A DNA stretch of 64,000 bases, from positions 7,014 to 71,013 of the forward strand of contig JAUYSY010000088.1 in the NCBI GenBank assembly GCA_030696155.1, written 5' to 3'. The DNA is from Alphaproteobacteria bacterium. GTDB lineage: Bacteria; Pseudomonadota; Alphaproteobacteria; JAUXUR01. This document shows positions 34,108 through 48,764 of the stretch, one piece after another (positions within the stretch are counted from its first letter, which is position 1; each line of letters starts with the position of its first letter). The notes under the pieces are model-generated. The model was not told the DNA's origin. It worked only from the letters and a program-made list of their open reading frames with translations, and did not search any database. A program made the translations under genes and the position numbers.

Positions 34108-34677
34108 ATGAGCAAATTAATCGGATATGCACGTGTTTCAACATCAGGTCAGGAACTCAATCTTCAGATCGATGCGCTTAAAAAAATTGGATGTGAAAAA
34201 AAGAATATTTTTACGGATGTTGTCTCTGGCTCTAAAACGGATAGGCCTGGATTAAATGAGTGTTTAGAAACTTTACAATCAGGCGACACACTTGTTGTTT
34301 GGCGATTAGACCGTTTAGGGAGGTCAATGTCTCATCTTGTTTCAACTATCGAAAATTTGATTGCCAAAAAAATTGGATTTAAATCTATTTCAGATGGACA
34401 TATAGATACAACGACGGCATCAGGAGAGCTTATATTTAATATATTTTCGTCTCTTGCTCAATTTGAACGACGCCTTATTCAAGAAAGAACAAAATCAGGA
34501 TTAGAGGCAGCACGAGCAAGGGGCAGGGTAGGGGGCAGAAAACCAATAAGCAAATATAACTCAAAAGTATTAGCGGCTCAAAAATTACATCACGATAAAT
34601 CAATGCCAATAGAAAATATTTGCAAGGAGTTGCAGATTTCAAAACCAACTTTATATCGCTATCTTAAATTGAAGTGA
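34108..34677 (+). CDS. Serine recombinase (resolvase/invertase family)
   Basis: GYARVSTSGQ catalytic-Ser motif and C-terminal HTH. 189 aa. Confidence 0.9.
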   Translation: MSKLIGYARVSTSGQELNLQIDALKKIGCEKKNIFTDVVSGSKTDRPGLNECLETLQSGDTLVVWRLDRLGRSMSHLVSTIENLIAKKIGFKSISDGHIDTTTASGELIFNIFSSLAQFERRLIQERTKSGLEAARARGRVGGRKPISKYNSKVLAAQKLHHDKSMPIENICKELQISKPTLYRYLKLK

Positions 34678-34983
34678 AGAATCTTACTTCAAAAAATCTC
34701 CAAAATCGATTATTTTTGTAAAAAAATCACTTTCGGCTACTTCTTCTGACACACCATTTATATGAATAAAAACAGGGCGGCAGGAAAAGTTTTTCAGAAA
34801 AAATTGGATTATTATTCTCCGTAAAATGATAAATGTCAATTTTTGGAGATTTTTTTTAAGCTAATTTTATAGTACAAGCGCAAAACCATGGGGCTTGCCC
34901 CGTGGAGTTTCACTATTATTAAAATATTTTTTGAATATTAGATTTATGATAAGTCAGATCTTCGAAAAAGGGTAGAAGGAATT

Positions 34984-35793
34984 TTATACATTAATAACCT
35001 CTTGAATCTTAGGCTTAGTGTATTCAGCAGCTCCCGCTTTAACGATCAGATTGTTACATGGCTGCCAGTTGGCTTTGCTATGTGTATGACCGCAAAGTGC
35101 TAAAAATTCAATATCAGTATTTGCTTGAGCGATTTGCATCAGCACATCGCCTGTTATTTTTGATGAGAAGAATGGAAGAAAATCATCGTTGCTTATTTTA
35201 CCTTCATGCATACAGGCTTCTTTAAATGGTGGCACATGAATCAAAATAATAACTTTTTTAGGACGATTATTGCTAATGGCATCAGACAATCTCGCTTTCA
35301 AATGCTGGGCATCTTGATCGGCTAATTGCTGCATTTTCTCAAGTAACATGTATTTACCAAAAATGTTGCTTTGAAACAGATCGATGATCATTCGGCTGTC
35401 ATTTAGGGTGACACAACTATTGGTATAATCCCCATATCTGCCATCGGCCCAACAATCTTCACCGAGCAAAATAGTTTGACTCCCTAGATCGTGCACACCA
35501 GACGCTGGAAGCCAATGAAGTAACGGTTCATTTTTGGTTAGATCGCGCATTTCTTGGCGTAATGAATCCACTTGGCCGCGGTAATAATCATGGTTGCCGA
35601 GCACAAAATATATTGGTTTTTGAATTTCTTTGACCATTTCCTTTAGAATTTCTGAAACTGATGGCGCTTCAGCAATATCGCCGCTAATCAAAATCATATC
35701 ACCGGATATCGCTATTACTTTTTTGTAAAACTCCATTCTGCGCTCTGGCCCTAGAAAGTTAAGATGAATGTCTGTTAGCCAAATCAATTTCAT
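34984..35793 (-). CDS. Calcineurin-like metallophosphoesterase
   Basis: LTDIHLN, ISGDIAE and VLGNHDYY motifs. 4-nt overlap with upstream AbiEii-like gene. Confidence 0.8.
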   Translation of the reverse strand: MKLIWLTDIHLNFLGPERRMEFYKKVIAISGDMILISGDIAEAPSVSEILKEMVKEIQKPIYFVLGNHDYYRGQVDSLRQEMRDLTKNEPLLHWLPASGVHDLGSQTILLGEDCWADGRYGDYTNSCVTLNDSRMIIDLFQSNIFGKYMLLEKMQQLADQDAQHLKARLSDAISNNRPKKVIILIHVPPFKEACMHEGKISNDDFLPFFSSKITGDVLMQIAQANTDIEFLALCGHTHSKANWQPCNNLIVKAGAAEYTKPKIQEVINV

Positions 35794-36575
35794 GGGAGCC
35801 TGCTAATAATCTTATCTATAACGAGTTGATAAGCTTCTTCGAAGTTCCAGTGCAATTTGGAAGGCAATAAAATGCTCATATCCATATGGAAATCACGATG
35901 ATTTTTCTTCTGATCGAGATTTTTTATGAATTCTTCCCGTGAGATCTTCACATCGTTATAAATGCAATATTTAGAAAAAATTTCAAAAACTCTATCCAAG
36001 TTAATCAATTCTTGCTTTGTAACGTACCATAAATCAAATAAATCTCGCCCTTTTCGACGTTGGTATAAGGCGCGCAGTTTAGTTGCTATAAGCTCATCAA
36101 TTTCATAGGTGACAATATCCGCAGAGCCATTAAACCATTCAGATTGCACATCTAATTTCTCTAAGCGAAAAGGTAATACCTGAAAATGCTCAGTGGTGTT
36201 TATTTCAATTTTTAGTTTTGCTGGTAGTGTATTAATAGCCTCGTATTTATAAATTAATTTGGCACTGCGTTCGGTAATTTTCCATTTTGGATCACCAAGC
36301 CATGGTTTTAGAAGCGCTCTGATTGCATCAATTGTTTTTCCGATAGGTTCAGATCTTTTTTGTACGAAATCAATGTCTTCACTATATCTTGCTGGTGGCT
36401 TTAGAAATAGTTTATTGAGTGCGGTACCGCCACGAAAAACAAGTGCATCTTTTATGTATGGCTCGTTATACAAATCAACCAGAGCCCGGCTAATAATTAA
36501 ATCTTGTTCTATTTGTTCAAGTGTCTGCCATTTGACAGTTTGACGCCAATGTTCAATGAAAATTTCTGGAATCAT
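35790..36575 (-). CDS. AbiEii/AbiGii-family nucleotidyltransferase toxin (type IV TA)
   Basis: FRGGTALNKLF...RYSEDIDFV signature of the DUF1814/AbiEii family. 4-nt overlap with the upstream antitoxin-like gene. Confidence 0.7.
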   Translation of the reverse strand: MIPEIFIEHWRQTVKWQTLEQIEQDLIISRALVDLYNEPYIKDALVFRGGTALNKLFLKPPARYSEDIDFVQKRSEPIGKTIDAIRALLKPWLGDPKWKITERSAKLIYKYEAINTLPAKLKIEINTTEHFQVLPFRLEKLDVQSEWFNGSADIVTYEIDELIATKLRALYQRRKGRDLFDLWYVTKQELINLDRVFEIFSKYCIYNDVKISREEFIKNLDQKKNHRDFHMDMSILLPSKLHWNFEEAYQLVIDKIISRLP

Positions 36576-37378
36576 AAATCGCTCTCTATTTCTGTATTAT
36601 TAATAATTCTCCACTTTTTACATCTGGGATAGCCGGTTTTAGGTATTTCAGAAGCAAGTGGGAGATATTTTAGTTTGTGCTCTGCGACATACGAAGCAAG
36701 AGCATTAATAATTATTTCAGCATGGTTATCATCTATAATTTCAATATTGTCTAGGATATAACCAATGCGTTGCAATTGATGTTCAGCTTTGATATCCTTC
36801 GCAAGTTTTATAAGCTTGGTAGCATCTAAGTTTTCAACCAGCTCTGATAAAACCGTTGCTATATGGTTTAAGCCACCTGCATGGTTCGGGTAATTCAGTA
36901 AATCAAGCGCTATCAATTCAGGGGTTGCTATTTTAAGGTAACCGGTACTAACAGTAAAATTTTGGATCGGTAAAGCTGATATGGATTTTTTATAAATAAA
37001 CTCTATCTCTATATCACCAAAAGTTAATGAATGTTTAATTCTTTTGTCTGATATAACCTGGAATCTAGCAGGTTTTTGGTGCGTAGCTCCATGGAACAAC
37101 CCTGCGGTTAGCAACGCAACATAATAATTAGCACCTAAATATTGCATCATCAAAGGAACTAATTCTTTTGCTGGTATAGAACCATGCGGTTGATGTTCAG
37201 GTGGAATGATGACATACAAACCTCTGGCAGGTGAAATCACATCCCTAGTTTTAAGTAACCGATGTAAGGAAACCCTCGCATGGTTGTGTGAAACGTGAAA
37301 TTGCGCAACGATATCCTCGATGGTAAAGCAGCGTTTTCCATCTTTTCGGATATCTTTTATGTATGATTGTAAATTCAT
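36572..37378 (-). CDS. AbiEi-family antitoxin / transcriptional regulator
   Basis: 268 aa with N-terminal wHTH-like region. Operon position upstream of the AbiEii-like toxin. GC-richer than flanks. Confidence 0.5.
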   Translation of the reverse strand: MNLQSYIKDIRKDGKRCFTIEDIVAQFHVSHNHARVSLHRLLKTRDVISPARGLYVIIPPEHQPHGSIPAKELVPLMMQYLGANYYVALLTAGLFHGATHQKPARFQVISDKRIKHSLTFGDIEIEFIYKKSISALPIQNFTVSTGYLKIATPELIALDLLNYPNHAGGLNHIATVLSELVENLDATKLIKLAKDIKAEHQLQRIGYILDNIEIIDDNHAEIIINALASYVAEHKLKYLPLASEIPKTGYPRCKKWRIINNTEIESDL

Positions 37379-38684
37379 AGCTTTTCATGTCCTTAAAGTT
37401 ACTAATAACGTAACTATAGAGACACGATAAGCTTGTTTTTTGTGTAAGTCAAGCGCAACGCATTATTATGAGCTCTTCATGTCCATAAAGTTACTGATAG
37501 TGTTATTATTAGGACATACGAAGATGTTAATTTGATTATTTTGCGAAATGTCAAAAGGTTCTATTTATATAAAAGAAAGGCCACCTTTCTAAGGCCTTTC
37601 TTTTAAAAAAGATCTAAATAAGATTACGATATCTTTCTTTGAATCCTTGAAAAACTTCTCTGATAGTTGCAATAATTTTACCTTCATTAAGCTCATTATT
37701 TTCCCAGAGATTGAGATCAATATTCGTTGGCTTCAACATGTCTTGAAGATCAATAAGAAAATTATAATTTACATAATAAAAAAGATCATAAAAAGGGAAA
37801 TCAAACAATGCATCATTCTCTACGTTTTTTGTATATTTAATATAACGATCACAAGGAATTTTCGGACCTTTTGAATTCTCAGCTTTGATAAAATCATAGA
37901 TCGTTAATAAATTTTCAGGATGTATATGCGTTTGGATGTCAGTTTCGTTGTTGTAAATATCTTCAGTTTTTTCGCCCTTATCATTGAGTTATTAATTGTT
38001 TTAAAGAACACCCAGAAATAAGATTGAATACGCAACGAATAGCAAATGAAACTGGACTTCCTTTAAGGACGGTTGCATATGCACTTTCAGGTCTGTTTAA
38101 AAATAATCTTATACAAAAATCTGGACAAGGCTCTGCAACAAAATATCAAATAACTTTTTAATATTTAGGCGAATAAATAGGTTCTATTTTATCTGTATAT
38201 TTTTTATGCCATAAAAGTGATATTTTTTGCTATTTATAGGACATGGAGATTTTATTTAAGCTCCTTATAGAAAGCATTATAAATGATAACGACTATTATA
38301 AAAGGCGTTAAAATTAATCTGTAATAACGTATTGATATGTTGTTTCTATGGGTTTTATATAAAATTTTTTAGATTTGGTTTTTCGTAAATATTGATTTCA
38401 ATGGTTCTGTCGTATTTGTGTGATTTGTGTAAGACAATCGAATTTACCTCTAAGGCATTCTTTTGATATTATTTTTTGTATGTTTTAAACATATTTATCC
38501 CCAGAAAATGGGGATAACATTTTTTTATTTTTTAAGAAGTTGTTATTAATTTTTTTCCTTTATCTCTCCAAATATTTAATTGTTGTTCATGATCTCGCAT
38601 TTCAGAATGAAGTTCATATACAGCTCCTAACAGGATCGATATACAATTGTAAACGCCAATATTTCAAGTGGTGATAAAGAAGAT

Positions 38685-41600
38685 ATGCGTCTTCTTGGCA
38701 ATGATGATGCCGCGTCCACTTTCATTAAGCTCCCTAACATTTTGAAAATATTAGCCAATACCTTTGGCGTCCCAGCCATTAACGCCCAAATAAAGCAAAT
38801 CGCTGATCAAATCGTCAAAGGCGTGTTCCTAGAAACAAACTGGGCGGGCTTGCCTTATACGGGTAAATTACGCGCGGATATTCTGTCTATCCTTAAAATG
38901 TTCGGGTTTGCAGAAGAATTCGACGACCAATTGGTGTTGGGCGATGCAGTTGTGATTGCCCGTGTGCTTGAAGATGCAGCACTTCGACTTGTGGGCAAAC
39001 CCTATTTCCATGATGCGAGTCGTGGGCAAATGCCCGAACAGCAAGTCAAGGATTTGCTGGTTAATATGGTGGCGTTTTCCCGCCAATATTGGGCGCAATT
39101 GGATTTCAAAAAGCCGTTCCCTGAACATATGCGCCATCTTGTTACCGAACCAATGTTATGGCTGGTGCAAGAAGATCTGACGGTTGGTGCTATTAGCTTA
39201 AAACTGCTCATGCCCTATATCGTTTTTCCAAATGCGTATTTGGCGGAAATTGATGATCAATTGAATGGAATTGCTACTTATAACAGTATTGATGTGACGG
39301 TTTCGGATCTTGCTTATATTGAAGCGCCTCTCATTGTAAAAGAAAGCTCGAGTTTCGATTGTAAAGACTTTATAACCCGTATGCGTCGTGATTACGGCAG
39401 CAAGACTTTATACAATTCAAGCGTTAAAAATGGTGTAACAACTATTCATGATGCTTACACAGTGCCCACCATTACGTTCCATGATCATGAGAAATTCCAT
39501 TTTGGGAAAAAATTAAACGTCAAAGCCAGCAATAATATTGTTAATGATGCGGGTCGCATCTTCGCAGATGTCATGCATTTCCAAGCAAAAGGCGATATGT
39601 ATAATAGCGGCCAAATGTGTTTTGTGGATTCTTTAAAAGCGAATATTAACGGGTCTTTCAGCAATGACATTATTGTTGTGACTGAATATGACGAAGTCAA
39701 CGGCGTTAAAGGAACCAGAACCTATACGGGACACGCGGCACGCAATGCAATCAAAGCAAATTCAGGACAAATACTTGCGATCGGCGACGGCAAAGGTCTG
39801 TTCGATGTTAAAACAGGTAAAGACTTCAACCATCGCGGTATTATTGACGTTAATGACGTTAAAATAGTAGCAAATGGAAATCTTAAGATTGAAAATCTAC
39901 CTGACCAATTTGTTGTTCGCTGGGATCCTGGGGCTGGATCTAAAAAAGGCATGGATTGTTTCTCGATCGCCTCCCAATTTACACCGTCGGAAATCCGAGC
40001 ACGCGATGGCTCTGTAAAGCTTGTCGTGGGCGGAGATGCTACGGTGTATGCGTCTTTATTAGCTGCTGCTGACGATATTATTGTTGAGGCAAAGGGTTTC
40101 ATAAAGGCGGAAGCCAAGGGCGAGTCTTATCTAGGTAATGTCAGCATTGAAAACGGCAGACGAAATCGCACTATCAAACAAGAATCGGACATCATCATCC
40201 AGAAAGTGCAAGTTGTTGCAAATGGCAATGTCCGCATGATTGCGCATAAAAATGTTAATATTAAAGGTGGTGATATTGTGGCCGGCCTTGAAGTTGAAAT
40301 TGTTGGCGAAAACATCAATCTAACGCCGATTCAACTCATTGCAGAAAATAAAGTCAAAGAATATGGTTCACGTGGTTTTTCTTATTACAAAAACAATATG
40401 ACTTATTCGACTTCCAATGTTGCCACAACCGATATTCACGCGAATAGTATTAAGCTTTCCGCTAAACATGATGTGAATATTAAGGCATCGATGCTGATGG
40501 CGATGGAAGACATTACGATTAATGCCGGCAATAATATTACAATTGTTGAGGAACTCGTCGAACATTATGTGCACAGCAAAAGCTTTTCAGCACATTTGAA
40601 TTTCTTTGGCAAAAGGGCGATGGATCGCGTTTTAAAGAAAGACATGCGTGGGGCGACACGTGCTTTCGCGCAGGAATTTGGGATTTTAAACCAAATGAAT
40701 CGCTTGATCAAAGCGAAACATGGGCCCGATGTGGCAATTGAAAGCGTGAAATCCATCCTTGATTTATATAAAGAATATCAAGCCATTGATAAAATGGGTT
40801 TTGTTAATTATTGCAAGAAAGCGGCTGTTGAAAAGCTTTTAAGTTCAAGTGCTTCTCTTGAATTTAGTCAAGAAAAACAACAATGGTTTGAAGCGATTTT
40901 GCCCGTGATGCGCGCGAAAAATATTCTGATGAAAGCGGGGAATAATATCAATTTGCGTGGCCTTCAAGCTAAAGCTGAGACGATGAGTCTAGAGGCTAAA
41001 GGCAATATTGATATTCGTGCCGCACAAGAATATTATAATTACCATAAAAAAATACGCACATTAGAAGTGCATACAAGTGCGAATTTTGATCCGGTCAATA
41101 ACGAGTTCTTACTGCCTAATGTTGGTTTTTCGGCTGGCTATCAAAGTTGCTCAAATCATGGCGTGAGACATAAAAATTCACATATTGTTGTGGATAGATT
41201 CGAAGCCCGAACACCCAATACATTGACGTTGGAAGGCGCTACAATCAAAGCAACAGATGTCAAAATCATTGCCAATGCGTTGTTGATGAAATCCTTGGTG
41301 GATACTGAATCTGGGCGCAATAAAGCAATTTCTGGCGGGTTGGATCTGAATTTGGCAAATGGTCAGTTAAGCGGCCATGTTGAGGGCAGCAAAGGGTCTT
41401 ACAGCAAAGCTAAAGTCAACGAACAAACAGGCATCACGGCTTTGGGCGAGTTCATCGCAGAAATCGGCGATTTAACGCATTTGCAAGGGGCATATATTGA
41501 TGCTGTGAACAGTACATTAAAGACGGCGCGTTTTCTTCATAATAATGTTGAAGAATATGACCGATCGAAGCAAACGAGTTTCGATACAGGCAGCTTCAAT

Positions 41601-42911
41601 ATTAAGAAATTCGATATGCCTGGTTCAAAGAAGGATGCGCCAGCAAAACAAGATCAAAATAATGCACCGAAAACGGATTTCGGCATTACGGATGTAGGCT
41701 TCTCGAGGAACTCGTTATTTGCTTTAGTGGATGCTTCCTATCAAAGCAAAAACCAAAAAGGCGTGCTCAAAGCTGGTGCTTCGTCTGGTGTGCAAATCGT
41801 CACGCAATCGGATATTGGCAATTTAAATCGTGATTTAAGCCAAGCGCGCGAATTGGTCAAAGATCACAAGCATTATGTGCGGGTTTTAGTACCTGTTGGT
41901 GATCCAAGTGAATTTATTGAAACCCTCAAAGAGATGTTCAGTGATGTTCAAGGATTGTTTCAATCGGCTGAAACGAAAAGAGAACGCCAGGAAATCAAAG
42001 CGTATAAACAGATTTTTGACGCTATCGAAGAACGCGATGATTTAACGCAAACTGAAAAAGTACAAGCGTTTCAAGCAGCAAGTAATGTGTTGAATCAAAT
42101 GAAGGAAATTCAGCGCGAAACAGCTTCATTAGAAAAAGATATTTCTAAAATTGAAGATAATTTCTTTTCAAAGACAAAAGAAACGACGCCCCATGTTCCT
42201 GTTGAAATAAAAGTTGAAAATCAACCTGGTTGCAACGGTGAGGATGGATGTTATGAAGTACACATTACACGAGGTCATTATGATTATACGAAAGGCACCT
42301 TACATTCAGTTGCCAAGAAAATACGTTATCTTCAAAATGCGTATGAAGATTTTAAAGAAAGCCAACCCAAATGGTTGCGTAATACTTTAAATGCGGCCAT
42401 GGGTGTCGCAGGCTTTTGTGCAGGTGGACCCCTTAAGAAGATTGGTCAAAAACTTGCCACGATTGCGGTTGCTGAAGGTCTTCATATTGGTGCAGATGAT
42501 TTATTAGATCATATCGAGCATAGTGATAGTGATCGAATAGCAGATATGGAAAGCTTCCTGCGTATTACTAGAAAAGATACGCTTACTTTTACTGGATTGT
42601 TCTTAGGTGTCGCGATTTACAAAGCAACACCTGGCGGCACGTCAAAAGCGGCACTCAAGGCAAAAGAACGTAAGTTTGCACGTGAACAACATGGTGATAC
42701 GCATATTGATGGAGGAAAAGCACATAAAATAAATCCCGCACTTCTTACGGGTATTGCGAAAATCCGGTATGATTGGGAAAACTTCGTACGTCAAAAATTG
42801 GTGGAAGGATTTAAGTTTGAACGGCATCATATTGTGCCAAAAGAATATGCAAAGCACGATGCTTTTAAATTAGCCGGTACGCATGTTGATGATAAAATGA
42901 ATCTTGTGTAG
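38685..42911 (+). pseudogene. FhaB/CdiA-like polymorphic toxin fragment (no N-terminal secretion/TPS domain) with C-terminal AHH/HNH-type nuclease domain interrupted by in-frame TAG at 42909..42911; reading frame continues to 43172
   Basis: Haemagglutinin-type beta-helix repeats (VVANGNVRMIAHKNVNIKGGDIV, IHANSIKLSAKHDVNIKASM, ITINAGNNITIV). C-terminus ERHHIVPKE...NLV-TAG-LPRKG...THRGKHYQPY matches the AHH nuclease pattern. A stop codon lies 18 codons upstream of the first Met. GC noticeably higher than surrounding DNA. Confidence 0.55.
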
Positions 42912-43122
42912 CTTCCCAGAAAAGGAACAGAAGCTGAATTAAAAACAGGTGCGACAACGCATCGTGGAAAGCATTATCAACCATATAAGAAGGAAGTTAA
43001 TGAAGCTTTGGATAAAATAAGGGATGAAGGTCTTGCTAAGGGATGGACACAGTCCCAATTTAAAGAAAAGCTTCATCATTTTATGGATGATTTTGGTGAG
43101 CAATTATTAAAAGGTAATAAAC

Positions 43123-44025
43123 ATGTCAATACATCAGGAGAAAGGTTTCATCATGAAATCCATCCAAAATAATAAACCATATAAATGGGGTGTATTAGAA
43201 AAATATCCTGAAAAATATTTTGCAAATTATGATTCTGATAAAAGTCCTGATGCGTTTTATTTAAGACGATGTTTTAAATGGCCTGATGATTTACCTGAAA
43301 AATTGAATAATATTTGGAAAAAAAAAGTAAACCCTCCTTATGTATATTATTATGATGTAAAAGGGGATAAAGAACGACTTTTAATTTATGATTATATATC
43401 AAATATTACAAGTGTGCCTATTGTTAATAAAAGGACAAGGATTTTATTAGAAGAGTTTTGTCCTAATGATGTGCAATTTATAGACACTGAAATTCAAACA
43501 AAAAATGGCATTATTAAAGATGAATATTATGTGATTAATATTTTGAATAAAGTAGATGCCATTGATATGGAGAAAAGCGATTATTCTTATGAAGAAGATG
43601 GTGCTATAAATTTTAAAAAAGTATATTTTAAAGAAAATTCTATGAAAGGCCATTGGATTGCGCGTGATCAACAAGAATTTGGTATTATTTTAGTTTCAGA
43701 CGCATTAAAAAAATTATTTAGAAAACATAAAATTAAAGGCCCTGCTTTTTGGACAGATGTTGAGGCTTATCGTTATACGCCTACCTATGAATCAATTCCA
43801 AGATTTTTTGAAAATAATTTTAAAATTGCGCTTTCATATTTTCAAAGTGATTTAGAAGTTGATAGTAGTTTTCAGATATTAGTGCGTCGGTTGGATCGGA
43901 TACCACTTCATATGTTGGATGTTTTAATTGAAAAAGTTTCTGATTTATCTGATGAAGGCAAGAAGCGTTTGGAAAAAATAAAGGTTTTGGTTGAAGAATT
44001 ACGTCAAAAGCAAATGGGTGGCTAA
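43123..44025 (+). CDS. Putative immunity protein for the upstream nuclease toxin domain
   Basis: Intact 300-aa AT-rich ORF starting within or overlapping the end of the toxin reading frame, the classic toxin-immunity arrangement. No recognisable motif. Inference from context. Confidence 0.4.
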   Translation: MSIHQEKGFIMKSIQNNKPYKWGVLEKYPEKYFANYDSDKSPDAFYLRRCFKWPDDLPEKLNNIWKKKVNPPYVYYYDVKGDKERLLIYDYISNITSVPIVNKRTRILLEEFCPNDVQFIDTEIQTKNGIIKDEYYVINILNKVDAIDMEKSDYSYEEDGAINFKKVYFKENSMKGHWIARDQQEFGIILVSDALKKLFRKHKIKGPAFWTDVEAYRYTPTYESIPRFFENNFKIALSYFQSDLEVDSSFQILVRRLDRIPLHMLDVLIEKVSDLSDEGKKRLEKIKVLVEELRQKQMGG

Positions 44026-44312
44026 GATTTTACGAGGTTAGAGGGCATTGCGTCACAGTAAAACTGTGCCAAGAAATTCATGCGAATGTGAAAATCAATA
44101 ATAAAAGCATCGTTGAATTTTTTTGTTTTTTTTGCGGGGCCTTTCTTTTTAGGCCCACTCAATGTCCTCTTTCAAGGCCCTCCTTCTTCTTTTTTTGTCA
44201 TCTGTGGGAAGGGGGGTTCTTTTAATATGAATATAAAAACCGATCTTAGACAAGTGAATTTTAAATCGACATTTATCGGCCTAACAGCCAGCAGATGTTT
44301 GAGTGGGAGAAT

Positions 44313-44427
44313 GGCATTGCGTCGCAGTAAAACTGCGGCAGAAATTCATTTGAATTTCTGGGGCTAAAGCCCACGCAATGCCTTTACCTCCACCCACATC
44401 TTTTTTTTACGGCTAAATTCCGCGAGC
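44313..44427. repeat. Palindromic cloverleaf-like repeat element, copy A: 70-bp core with 10-bp terminal inverted repeats GGCATTGCGT/ACGCAATGCC and three internal hairpins, plus ~45-bp conserved tail
   Basis: Read directly. ~90% identical to 45474..45590. Partial copy at 44046..44090. Confidence 0.7.
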
Positions 44428-44573
44428 TGTTAAAACCAGGAGCGAGGTTCTATTCATTTTGTATAAAATTGTTAAAATTCGATATGTACTCTAGGTTTTA
44501 TTTGCTATAATGATCACAATTTATATCTTCTGATGATGTAATCGGATAAAATTAAATATAATAGGATAAAAAC

Positions 44574-45440
44574 ATGCGCGAACTTATTGATCCAAGGGTT
44601 GATTTGGCCTTTAAAAAAATTTTTGGCGTTGAAGAAAATAAAGATCTTTTAATTTCTTTAATTAATTCTGTTGTATCTCAAGAAGATCAAGTTCAAGATG
44701 TTGTACTTTTAACTCCTTATAATCCGCAAACATTTCGAAGTGAAAAATTATCAATTCTTGATATTAAAGCTGTAGGGCTGGATGACAAACGTTTTAATAT
44801 TGAAATTCAGATTAGTGATGAAGCGGATTATGATAAAAGAGCCCTTTATTACTGGGGTAAATTATATACAGAACAATTAAAAACAGGTCAAGATTATGGT
44901 ATTTTATGTAAAGCGATTGGGATTCATATCCTAAATTTTATGTCGATTCCGGATTCTAAGAAATATCACAATATTTTTACGATTAGAGAAAAAGAACTCG
45001 ATATTGAATATTTTAAAGATTTAGAACTACATACGATAGAACTTTCAAAATTTAATGCCGATGAACGTTTTACACAAGTAAAAACGGCTCTTGACAGGTG
45101 GGTTGCTTTTTTAACGCGTCAATCGTTGATCAATCGTGAAAATGTACCTGATCCGATGAATCAGCCCGATTTAAAAAAAGCCCTAAATGTATTGGATGTC
45201 ATGAATTTAAATGAAGAGGAAAGAAATTCTTATGATGACCATTTAAAATGGTTGCGCATAGAAGCCAATACACTCAAAAAATATAAAAAAGATGGATATG
45301 TTGAAGGTCTTGAAGAAGGTATTAAAAAAGAAAAATTTGACATAGCTAGTGCAATGATTAAGCAAAAGTTTGATGATACTGTTATTATGCACTTAACAGG
45401 TCTTTCTCAAGAAGAAATAGAAAATTTAAAAAGAAGTTAA
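44574..45440 (+). CDS. Rpn/YhgA-family recombination-promoting nuclease / putative transposase (PD-(D/E)XK)
   Basis: N-terminal DPRVDLAFKKIFG motif. C-terminal GLEEGIKKEK...LTGLSQEEIENL tail typical of the family. 288 aa. Confidence 0.75.
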   Translation: MRELIDPRVDLAFKKIFGVEENKDLLISLINSVVSQEDQVQDVVLLTPYNPQTFRSEKLSILDIKAVGLDDKRFNIEIQISDEADYDKRALYYWGKLYTEQLKTGQDYGILCKAIGIHILNFMSIPDSKKYHNIFTIREKELDIEYFKDLELHTIELSKFNADERFTQVKTALDRWVAFLTRQSLINRENVPDPMNQPDLKKALNVLDVMNLNEEERNSYDDHLKWLRIEANTLKKYKKDGYVEGLEEGIKKEKFDIASAMIKQKFDDTVIMHLTGLSQEEIENLKRS

Positions 45441-45473
45441 TTAACTGTTTTTTGTGTATTACTAAAACAGAGA

Positions 45474-45590
45474 GCATTGCGTCGCAGTAAAACTGCGGCA
45501 GAAATTCTTTTGAATTTCTGGGGATAAAGCCCACGCAATGCCTTCTCTTACCCCACATCTTTTTTTTACGGCTAAATTTCCCAAGCGGAT
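45474..45590. repeat. Palindromic cloverleaf-like repeat element, copy B (direct repeat of 44313..44427, flanking the Rpn-family gene)
   Basis: Read directly: AGCATTGCGTCGCAGTAAAACTGCGGCAGAAATTCTTTTGAATTTCTGGGGATAAAGCCCACGCAATGCC followed by the conserved tail ...CACATCTTTTTTTTACGGCTAAATT. Confidence 0.7.
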
Positions 45591-48236: not shown

Positions 48237-48386
48237 GAGAGCGTTATCAAAAAATTACCGATTTAAGCTTACATTTTACCTAAGTGGCACTAAATAGCAC
48301 AGATCTTACTACTGGGCCAACACCACCCCTATTATGTTCAAAGTGGACATAAATTCCTTAAGTCGGTTCCTTGTTCCATTACTCCC

Positions 48387-48746
48387 CTAACGCCTAATTC
48401 CAAAAATTAGAAAAGCATACCTTTTAAGTGTAGACAAAAAAGAAGGAGGTTTCTTAGTCACAGAAATATACCGAGGTAAATTATCATCACAGGGGGCAAG
48501 GTTATTGCGCAAAATCCACCCTCCTGGACCATCAAGGGAGGACAACTCTTTTTGAAACGCCGGATTATAAAATTCTTGCCATTTTAAGGGAGCATCCCAC
48601 TCTTTAAGGTAGGCCTGACGTTCGATGTCATTTAAAGAAACCCAAAAAGGCAACCAGACCCCAAGAGCCCAAACTTCACCCTCTTGACGCCAAAATATAT
48701 CCGAAGGCAAAAAACCAGGATACTCAATCCAAGGGGGATTACACAT
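48387..48746 (-). CDS. Hypothetical protein (119 aa), GC-richer cargo gene
   Basis: Intact ORF with non-AT-biased, Trp/Pro-rich composition. No motif recognised. Confidence 0.4.
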   Translation of the reverse strand: MCNPPWIEYPGFLPSDIFWRQEGEVWALGVWLPFWVSLNDIERQAYLKEWDAPLKWQEFYNPAFQKELSSLDGPGGWILRNNLAPCDDNLPRYISVTKKPPSFLSTLKRYAFLIFGIRR

Positions 48747-48764
48747 CTTCTTCTTTTTGTTCCT

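Follow-up and report, generated by a model that had tools for sequence, protein, structure and literature searches.

We analysed a 64,000-nucleotide stretch of DNA (here called the window; NCBI assembly GCA_030696155.1, contig JAUYSY010000088.1, positions 7,014 to 71,013) that carries a polymorphic toxin gene whose AHH nuclease domain is split by an in-frame TAG codon, together with an intact immunity gene that overlaps the end of the toxin frame. The window has 30% G+C, and the toxin gene lies on a 73-kb contig of an NCBI metagenome-assembled genome (MAG) named ‘Alphaproteobacteria bacterium’. The annotated toxin open reading frame (ORF; 38685..42911, forward strand) encodes 1408 amino acids and was deposited as a ‘hemagglutinin repeat-containing protein’ (MDP3533153.1), a coding sequence that bears no pseudogene flag. 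Its frame is open from 38631, right after a TAA at 38628-38630, has its first ATG at 38685, and closes at the TAG that forms codon 1409 (42909..42911, forward strand). A preliminary description of this DNA had reported that the 1408-residue haemagglutinin-repeat protein ends at this TAG and that the frame stays open to 43172; both statements are confirmed, and the residues that it gave around the stop (ERHHIVPKEYAKHDAFKLAGTHVDDKMNLV*LPRKGTEAELKTGATTHRGKHYQPY, the asterisk marking the stop) match the sequence exactly.

Beyond the TAG, the toxin frame continues for 86 further sense codons (42912..43172, forward strand) before closing at a TAA (43170-43172), such that the unbroken toxin would be about 1,495 amino acids long if read across the TAG. 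Each of the other five frames across this stretch contains between 3 and 13 stops, and the frame remains open in only 0.07% of 100,000 composition-matched shuffles. As a result, we conclude that this is not a chance open frame. The TAG sits in a non-homopolymer context (CTTGTGTAGCTTCCC), and the base immediately 3′ of it is a C.

The sequence joined across the TAG matches the Pfam AHH family (PF14412; Tox-AHH, of the HNH/EndoVII superfamily) with 64.2 bits (E 1.3e-17) over profile positions 11-105 of 111, corresponding to residues 1372-1464 (42798..43076, forward strand). In contrast, the annotated 1408-residue product reaches only 18.0 bits over profile positions 12-52, which is below the Pfam gathering cut-off of 22.3 bits. 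These scores bear out the earlier proposal of an AHH/HNH nuclease cut by the TAG, for which an alignment of the joined C-terminus to AHH had been suggested as a check. When 1.84 billion representative proteins were searched exhaustively with HMMER, 136 homologues were recovered, every one of which aligns across the stop position. In an alignment of 39 sequences, the column of the stop is occupied by leucine (13), phenylalanine (13) or tyrosine (6) in 32 cases, and its neighbours are a nearly invariant asparagine and an invariant Leu-Pro. The preliminary description was therefore right to place the stop at a conserved hydrophobic position.

The published Tox-AHH signature consists of [AG]HH, N, H, H and Y (Zhang et al. 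2012, PMC3482391), and it is complete in the joined reading as R1380-H1381-H1382, N1406, H1426, H1430 and Y1431. The first position is R here in place of the A or G of the signature; members of this subfamily differ at it, with Q, E, R and other residues. The TAG falls between RHH and N1406 on one side and H1426, H1430 and Y1431 on the other, and the last three residues are therefore missing from the translated product. The peptide encoded after the stop keeps the invariant LP, H-x-G-x-H-Y and GWTQ-x-Q[FY] blocks, with every conserved residue present. An AlphaFold2 (AF2) model of the joined domain has a mean confidence (pLDDT) of 87.5 and places the stop at model residue 45 of 131, ahead of helices spanning residues 49-55, 68-88 and 92-112. 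The translated product thus lacks three signature residues, three helices and about two thirds of the AHH domain. A sequence search of the PDB for a solved structure matching the domain returned no match. The allele is novel, as no homologue found exceeds 49% identity to it.

Immediately downstream is an intact gene for a 290-residue protein (43153..44025, forward strand), annotated by NCBI as MDP3533154.1 (locus tag Q8S31_07705). Its product matches the Imm11 immunity family (PF07791) with 64.2 bits against a cut-off of 22.1 (E about 1.3e-17 to 1.4e-17). The match is limited to residues 73-201, leaving an extra C-terminal region in this protein of about 290 amino acids. The preliminary description had recognized an immunity-like gene overlapping the extended toxin frame, and this part holds. 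The start that it gave, at 43123, is less well placed: the ATG at 43153 is more likely, because NCBI annotates it, because the homologue in a related locus begins at the equivalent codon, and because an AGGAG lies upstream at 43136-43140. From this ATG, the gene shares 20 nucleotides with the end of the unbroken toxin frame, and the same 20-nucleotide overlap occurs in that related locus. Imm11 has been listed as a partner of Tox-AHH (PMC3482391), and AHH-Imm11 pairs have been validated experimentally in Myxococcus xanthus (PMC12077181). On sequence grounds, we assign the gene as the predicted cognate immunity gene of the AHH toxin.

In the protein that carries the nuclease, the N-terminal region of about 440 amino acids (38685..40004, forward strand) matches no Pfam family and contains neither a segment resembling a signal peptide nor a two-partner secretion (TPS) domain. 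It is followed by an FHA-2-type haemagglutinin repeat body (40008..41606, forward strand), in which Fil_haemagg_2 (PF13332) matches residues 745-881 (40917-41327) with E 9.1e-17. Residues 442-621 and 746-974 are collinear with residues 2028-2225 and 2362-2597, respectively, of a 3067-residue Pannonibacter protein that does bear a TPS domain and whose gene lies on a plasmid beside a ShlB/FhaC/HecB gene. Weak similarity extends further towards the N-terminus, where toxin residues 85-197 align with Pannonibacter residues 1692-1800 (BLASTP E 0.77; hhalign E 0.052), and this region has a second weak match in an FhaB-like gene of Alysiella that is fragmented, about as far from its C-terminus. The searched collections yielded no further homologues of the N-terminus, and an AF2 model of residues 1-450 is of low confidence (pLDDT 31).

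Several signatures of export were sought in the toxin and its surroundings. The TPS domain (PF05860) that is present in the Pannonibacter comparator gives no match in the toxin at E values up to 1, an absence that the preliminary description did not record. Neither an NPNL or NPNG motif nor a hydrophobic segment at the N-terminus is found in the toxin, and PT-VENN is represented neither by a Pfam match nor by a VENN, VDNN or ELYN string. Within the window, a tblastn search with the Pannonibacter TpsB found no TpsB gene, and none is present among the scanned ORFs. These features leave two possible explanations of the carrier: that it is an orphan cassette of unusual length, or that it is a stand-alone toxin with another route of export. 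Our conclusion about the TAG is unchanged whichever of these holds.

Further insight comes from three related toxin-Imm11-Rpn loci, all of which have uninterrupted AHH domains. One contig, from JGI (L003; its central part was assembled separately as L004, from ENA), carries a tandem array of three modules whose toxins are 1491, 1076 and 1068 amino acids long. The first of these shares the N-terminus of the window toxin, is 78% identical to it over residues 1-1071, and has an intact AHH domain followed, in the arrangement of the window, by Imm11 and then Rpn. The first two modules each have a downstream gene (Imm11 and an unassigned 296-amino-acid ORF, respectively), the third toxin again has an intact AHH domain, and the contig stops after this module. 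A constant region, corresponding to residues of about 411-1070, is common to the L003 modules. Over the first 420-440 or so residues, the window toxin is 94% identical to its L003 orthologue with a ratio of nonsynonymous to synonymous substitution rates (dN/dS) of 0.14, and values of 0.14-0.20 for the toxin body indicate purifying selection. At least two uncultured, low-GC alphaproteobacteria maintain, under purifying selection, a carrier of about 1,490 amino acids that resembles the C-terminal half of CdiA and has no TPS domain.

The closest AHH allele, at 49% identity, is the intact one of locus L005 (NCBI GCA_030683575.1; protein P0004), which also supplies the Imm11 homologue with the equivalent start described above. 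The two toxins reach the same terminus, HHEIHPK followed by a stop in the window and HHAIHNK followed by a stop in L005, and the Rpn proteins of the two loci are 95% identical. Protein P0003 is likewise intact across the stop position. The codons found in relatives at the stop column are CCA and GAT, and no related locus has a stop there; the comparison with orthologues that the preliminary description had advised therefore found sense codons and no shared stop. AHH identity to L005 is 45% before the stop and 52% after it, and the dN/dS of the domain is about 0.8-1.0 on both sides. The latter value is uninformative, because polymorphic toxin domains diversify in any case and because the pair is only 45-52% identical.

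We also searched for an orthologue carrying the same allele. None was found by a word-indexed protein search with the joined C-terminus or by two metagenome scans, one with the C-terminal region and one with the N-terminus. A scan of genome contigs for the allele returned only a 168-nucleotide fragment adjoining an IS30 element, and a plasmid collection contained no AHH relative. Since the nearest AHH domain is only 49% identical, the ancestral codon cannot be read directly. A separate observation concerns a copy of the toxin N-terminus from a different metagenome (L006, 348-1675), which has its own in-frame TAG (PE*MRHLV, compared with PEHMRHLV in the window), is cut by insertion sequence (IS) elements and has a Tn3 transposase fragment upstream. 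The stop and the IS damage in this copy indicate that these modules decay repeatedly.

Taken together, we consider it probable that the window records a very recent nonsense mutation in a CdiA-like module without a TPS domain, in the gene of its AHH nuclease toxin, and that Imm11 has been kept. In this scheme, the module would comprise a toxin of about 1,495 amino acids (an FHA-2 body like the C-terminal half of CdiA/FhaB, a variable linker and the AHH domain), its cognate Imm11 and an Rpn-family gene, and one base substitution would have converted sense codon 1409 into TAG. The original codon would most simply have been TTG (leucine) or TAT/TAC (tyrosine), each of which is one step from TAG and fits the usual residues of the column. 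Based on its motifs and on the part of the domain that is lost, the 1408-residue product is predicted to be unable to cut DNA, and the toxin would therefore be disarmed. The mutation would have to be very recent, because no second lesion is present. Imm11 may have been retained because it protects against relatives with an intact allele, as described for orphan immunity genes. It may also be that the toxin was already a non-exported ‘orphan’ cassette before the stop arose, in which case loss of the nuclease would carry no cost.

The surroundings of the gene and its relatives are in keeping with a real loss. The island around the toxin contains remnants of resolvase, Tn3 transposase, short-chain dehydrogenase/reductase (SDR) and helix-turn-helix (HTH) genes, which reveals that decay is common there. 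Related toxin copies have decayed as well, one (L001) being cut by IS30 and another being the L006 copy with its in-frame stop and IS elements. Orphan immunity genes are known to remain expressible beside toxin pieces without signals for export or initiation (Poole et al. 2011, PMC3150448). Likewise, 23.5% of the auxiliary type VI secretion system (T6SS) clusters in Ralstonia are decayed, and 34.7% of the decayed clusters have mutated toxins (PMC11481896). The preliminary description had offered a disarmed toxin with retained immunity as one of three options, and it is the best fit of the three.

Several observations weigh against this interpretation. The sequence comes from one MAG alone (MDP3533153.1 belongs to a cluster with 1 member on 1 contig), and so the TAG is without independent confirmation. 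The absence of any second lesion in the 86 codons after the stop would fit an error in base calling or in the consensus equally well, and AHH conservation relative to L005 is the same before the stop (45%) as after it (52%). Purifying selection on the toxin body indicates a family that was still functional in the recent past, so that a dead copy is slightly less to be expected. The predicted inactivity of the truncated nuclease is read from its motifs. As for the suggestion that the toxin was a purely silent cassette beforehand, it is at odds with the retained ATG, which is preceded by a possible ribosome-binding site, with the intergenic region and terminator-like hairpin upstream of the gene, and with the dN/dS of 0.14-0.20 relative to L003. 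For the carrier as an orphan module, the missing export domain, the constant region and array of the L003 modules and the immunity gene's own ribosome-binding site speak in favour, and the retained ATG, its possible ribosome-binding site, the dN/dS values and the fact that no full-length parent gene was seen speak against.

Some of these same observations would be expected if the TAG were a consensus base error, or a variant from a minority strain that the assembler fixed, in an organism that encodes an intact 1,495-residue AHH toxin. The lesion stands alone with all downstream sequence perfectly preserved, every relative is intact at the stop position, the gene body is under purifying selection, and only one assembly is involved. 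A contig index places neither the exact 1408-residue protein nor either start variant of Imm11 in any other assembly, and the only Logan contig (run SRR13727522, 1186 nucleotides, 100% identical to 44318-45503) covers just the Rpn gene and ends at its flanking repeats. Because a single assembly carries the sequence, the option of an artefact retains some probability, but we judge it unlikely. The lesion is a substitution outside a homopolymer, and substitution errors in such positions are rare in consensus assemblies. Moreover, base-call errors could not explain several truncated genes in the same island, toxin copies related to this one are clearly decayed in other assemblies, and even a minority variant would mean that a disarmed allele truly exists in the population. 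It is far less probable that the TAG is partly decoded through leaky termination, a suppressor tRNA or programmed readthrough, in which case cells would make mostly a harmless 1408-residue carrier with traces of full-length nuclease matched by Imm11. The downstream frame is intact and reaches the normal terminus of the family, the cognate immunity gene is retained, and the TAG is directly followed by C, a comparatively weak termination context in Escherichia coli. If true, this would constitute translational dosage control that throttles an AHH nuclease, which has not been described for polymorphic toxins.

However, 7 other long ORFs of the window, out of 40, also end in TAG and have in-frame extensions of only 0-38 codons; the genome thus shows no general reading of TAG. 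No tRNA gene occurs within the window, the RNA 3′ of the TAG folds no better than shuffled sequences (z = -1.43), and the region from 37 to 47 kb has no Rfam match. Since no related locus has a stop at this column, the TAG is also not a conserved feature. The recoding or readthrough option of the preliminary description is thus left unsupported. Insertion of pyrrolysine was considered and set aside, as homologues have L, F or Y in the column and the window revealed no pyl genes. The notion that the protein naturally ends at the TAG, followed by 86 unrelated codons, is favoured by the NCBI annotation of an unflagged 1408-residue coding sequence, and we regard it as scarcely credible. The Pfam profile, the 136 homologues and the 39-sequence alignment all continue through the stop, and the blocks encoded after it lead to a C-terminus like that of P0004, on which grounds a natural terminus was rejected.

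The remaining features of the region are described here in their own right. An Rpn-family (PDDEXK_2) gene for a recombination-promoting nuclease (44574..45440, forward strand) is linked to the toxin-Imm11 pair in every related locus. A structured intergenic repeat of 94 nucleotides flanks the gene, with one copy at 44314..44407 (forward strand) and a second at 45474-45567, and a partial copy lies at 44027-44087. The repeat is predicted to fold into a three-hairpin multibranch structure followed by a run of T residues (dG -48.4 kcal/mol, z = -6.2), and it has no Rfam match. It recurs between toxin/immunity modules in L003, L004 and L005, which makes it a candidate for a boundary between modules, a site of recombination or a terminator.

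A mobile and defence island (34108-37378 and 52893-58776) surrounds the toxin. On the left it includes an intact resolvase gene (34108-34677), a metallophosphoesterase gene and an AbiEii/AbiEi type IV toxin-antitoxin pair (35790-37378), and an HTH tail remnant lies at 38024-38161. On the right are the C-terminal remnant of a resolvase (52893-53201), an N-terminally truncated SDR gene (55482-56111) and a piece of a Tn3 transposase gene (57973-58776). Repeated ends of approximately 38 base pairs occur in the window at 48351-48396, 53954-53999 and 61667-61712 (and more weakly at 49621-49666), in L003 at 35-101, and in L001 at 2522-2602. Their reverse complement reads GGGGTTAGGGGAGCAATGGAACAGGGAACCGACTTAAG, the GGGG...TAAG form that terminal inverted repeats of the Tn3 family typically have. 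One such end in L003 abuts the toxin gene, 14 nucleotides upstream of its ATG.

Elsewhere in the window, an ORF of 747 amino acids (50389-52632, forward strand) matches YoeB/Txe over its last 60 or so residues (E 1e-7), with the other 690 or so assigned to no family, and may be another toxin-tipped fusion protein. On the reverse strand, an ORF at 48765-49496 closes at a TAA and the same frame then stays open for 125 codons as a second ORF (48387-48746). Pfam assigns no family to either, and 48387-49496 may represent a second stop-split gene. The base composition of the window is uneven: G+C is about 21-32% in positions 1-34000, where the GC skew is steadily positive from approximately 14 to 34 kb, and positions 34000-64000 are richer, with 38-41% in the toxin. 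Given the higher G+C content of the right half, the toxin island may have been horizontally acquired.

The locus combines features of several known systems. It resembles established Tox-AHH/Imm11 pairs (PF14412/PF07791; PMC3482391), including those of the T6SS and SitA in M. xanthus (PMC12077181), in having a long carrier with repeats that ends in an AHH domain, an Imm11 gene directly downstream that overlaps the 3′ end of the toxin gene, and a mosaic organization with a constant body and a variable C-terminal region. It differs from them in the TAG that interrupts its nuclease, in the divergence of its allele (no homologue above 49% identity, and R in place of A or G), and in the extra C-terminal region of its Imm11 protein of about 290 residues. 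The FHA-2 body is collinear with the C-terminal 1,400 or so residues of the TPS-type Pannonibacter protein, as in CdiA/CdiB systems. Unlike those systems, the toxin has no TPS domain, signal peptide or VENN/PT region, and no cdiB or tpsB gene is present within the 64 kb.

Orphan cdiA-CT/cdiI modules (PMC3150448) are similar in that the export domain is missing and the immunity gene has its own start signals, and the tandem array of L003 offers a further parallel. In contrast to these orphans, the window toxin is unusually long at about 1,495 amino acids and has an ATG, a possible ribosome-binding site and a dN/dS of 0.14-0.20. The constant linkage of an Rpn-family gene also sets pairs of the window type apart from modules of contact-dependent growth inhibition (CDI) and their orphans. 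Decayed Ralstonia T6SS auxiliary clusters (PMC11481896) share the premature stop in the toxin, the intact immunity gene and a setting rich in mobile elements. Their carriers are VgrG, PAAR or Rhs proteins rather than an FHA-2 repeat protein, and the window comes from an uncultured, low-GC (30%) alphaproteobacterial MAG.

Toxins of the AHH/Imm11 type, and toxins inactivated by stops beside immunity genes that are kept, are already well described, and this locus is a new, divergent example with a single lesion. The deposited 1408-residue coding sequence, MDP3533153.1, is better regarded as that of a disrupted gene. Should the TAG be real, the locus would offer a snapshot of the first step in the loss of a toxin, in which one nonsense mutation has occurred, no further decay has followed, and immunity has been kept. 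This would fit the accepted picture in which immunity outlives toxicity and would add little to it.

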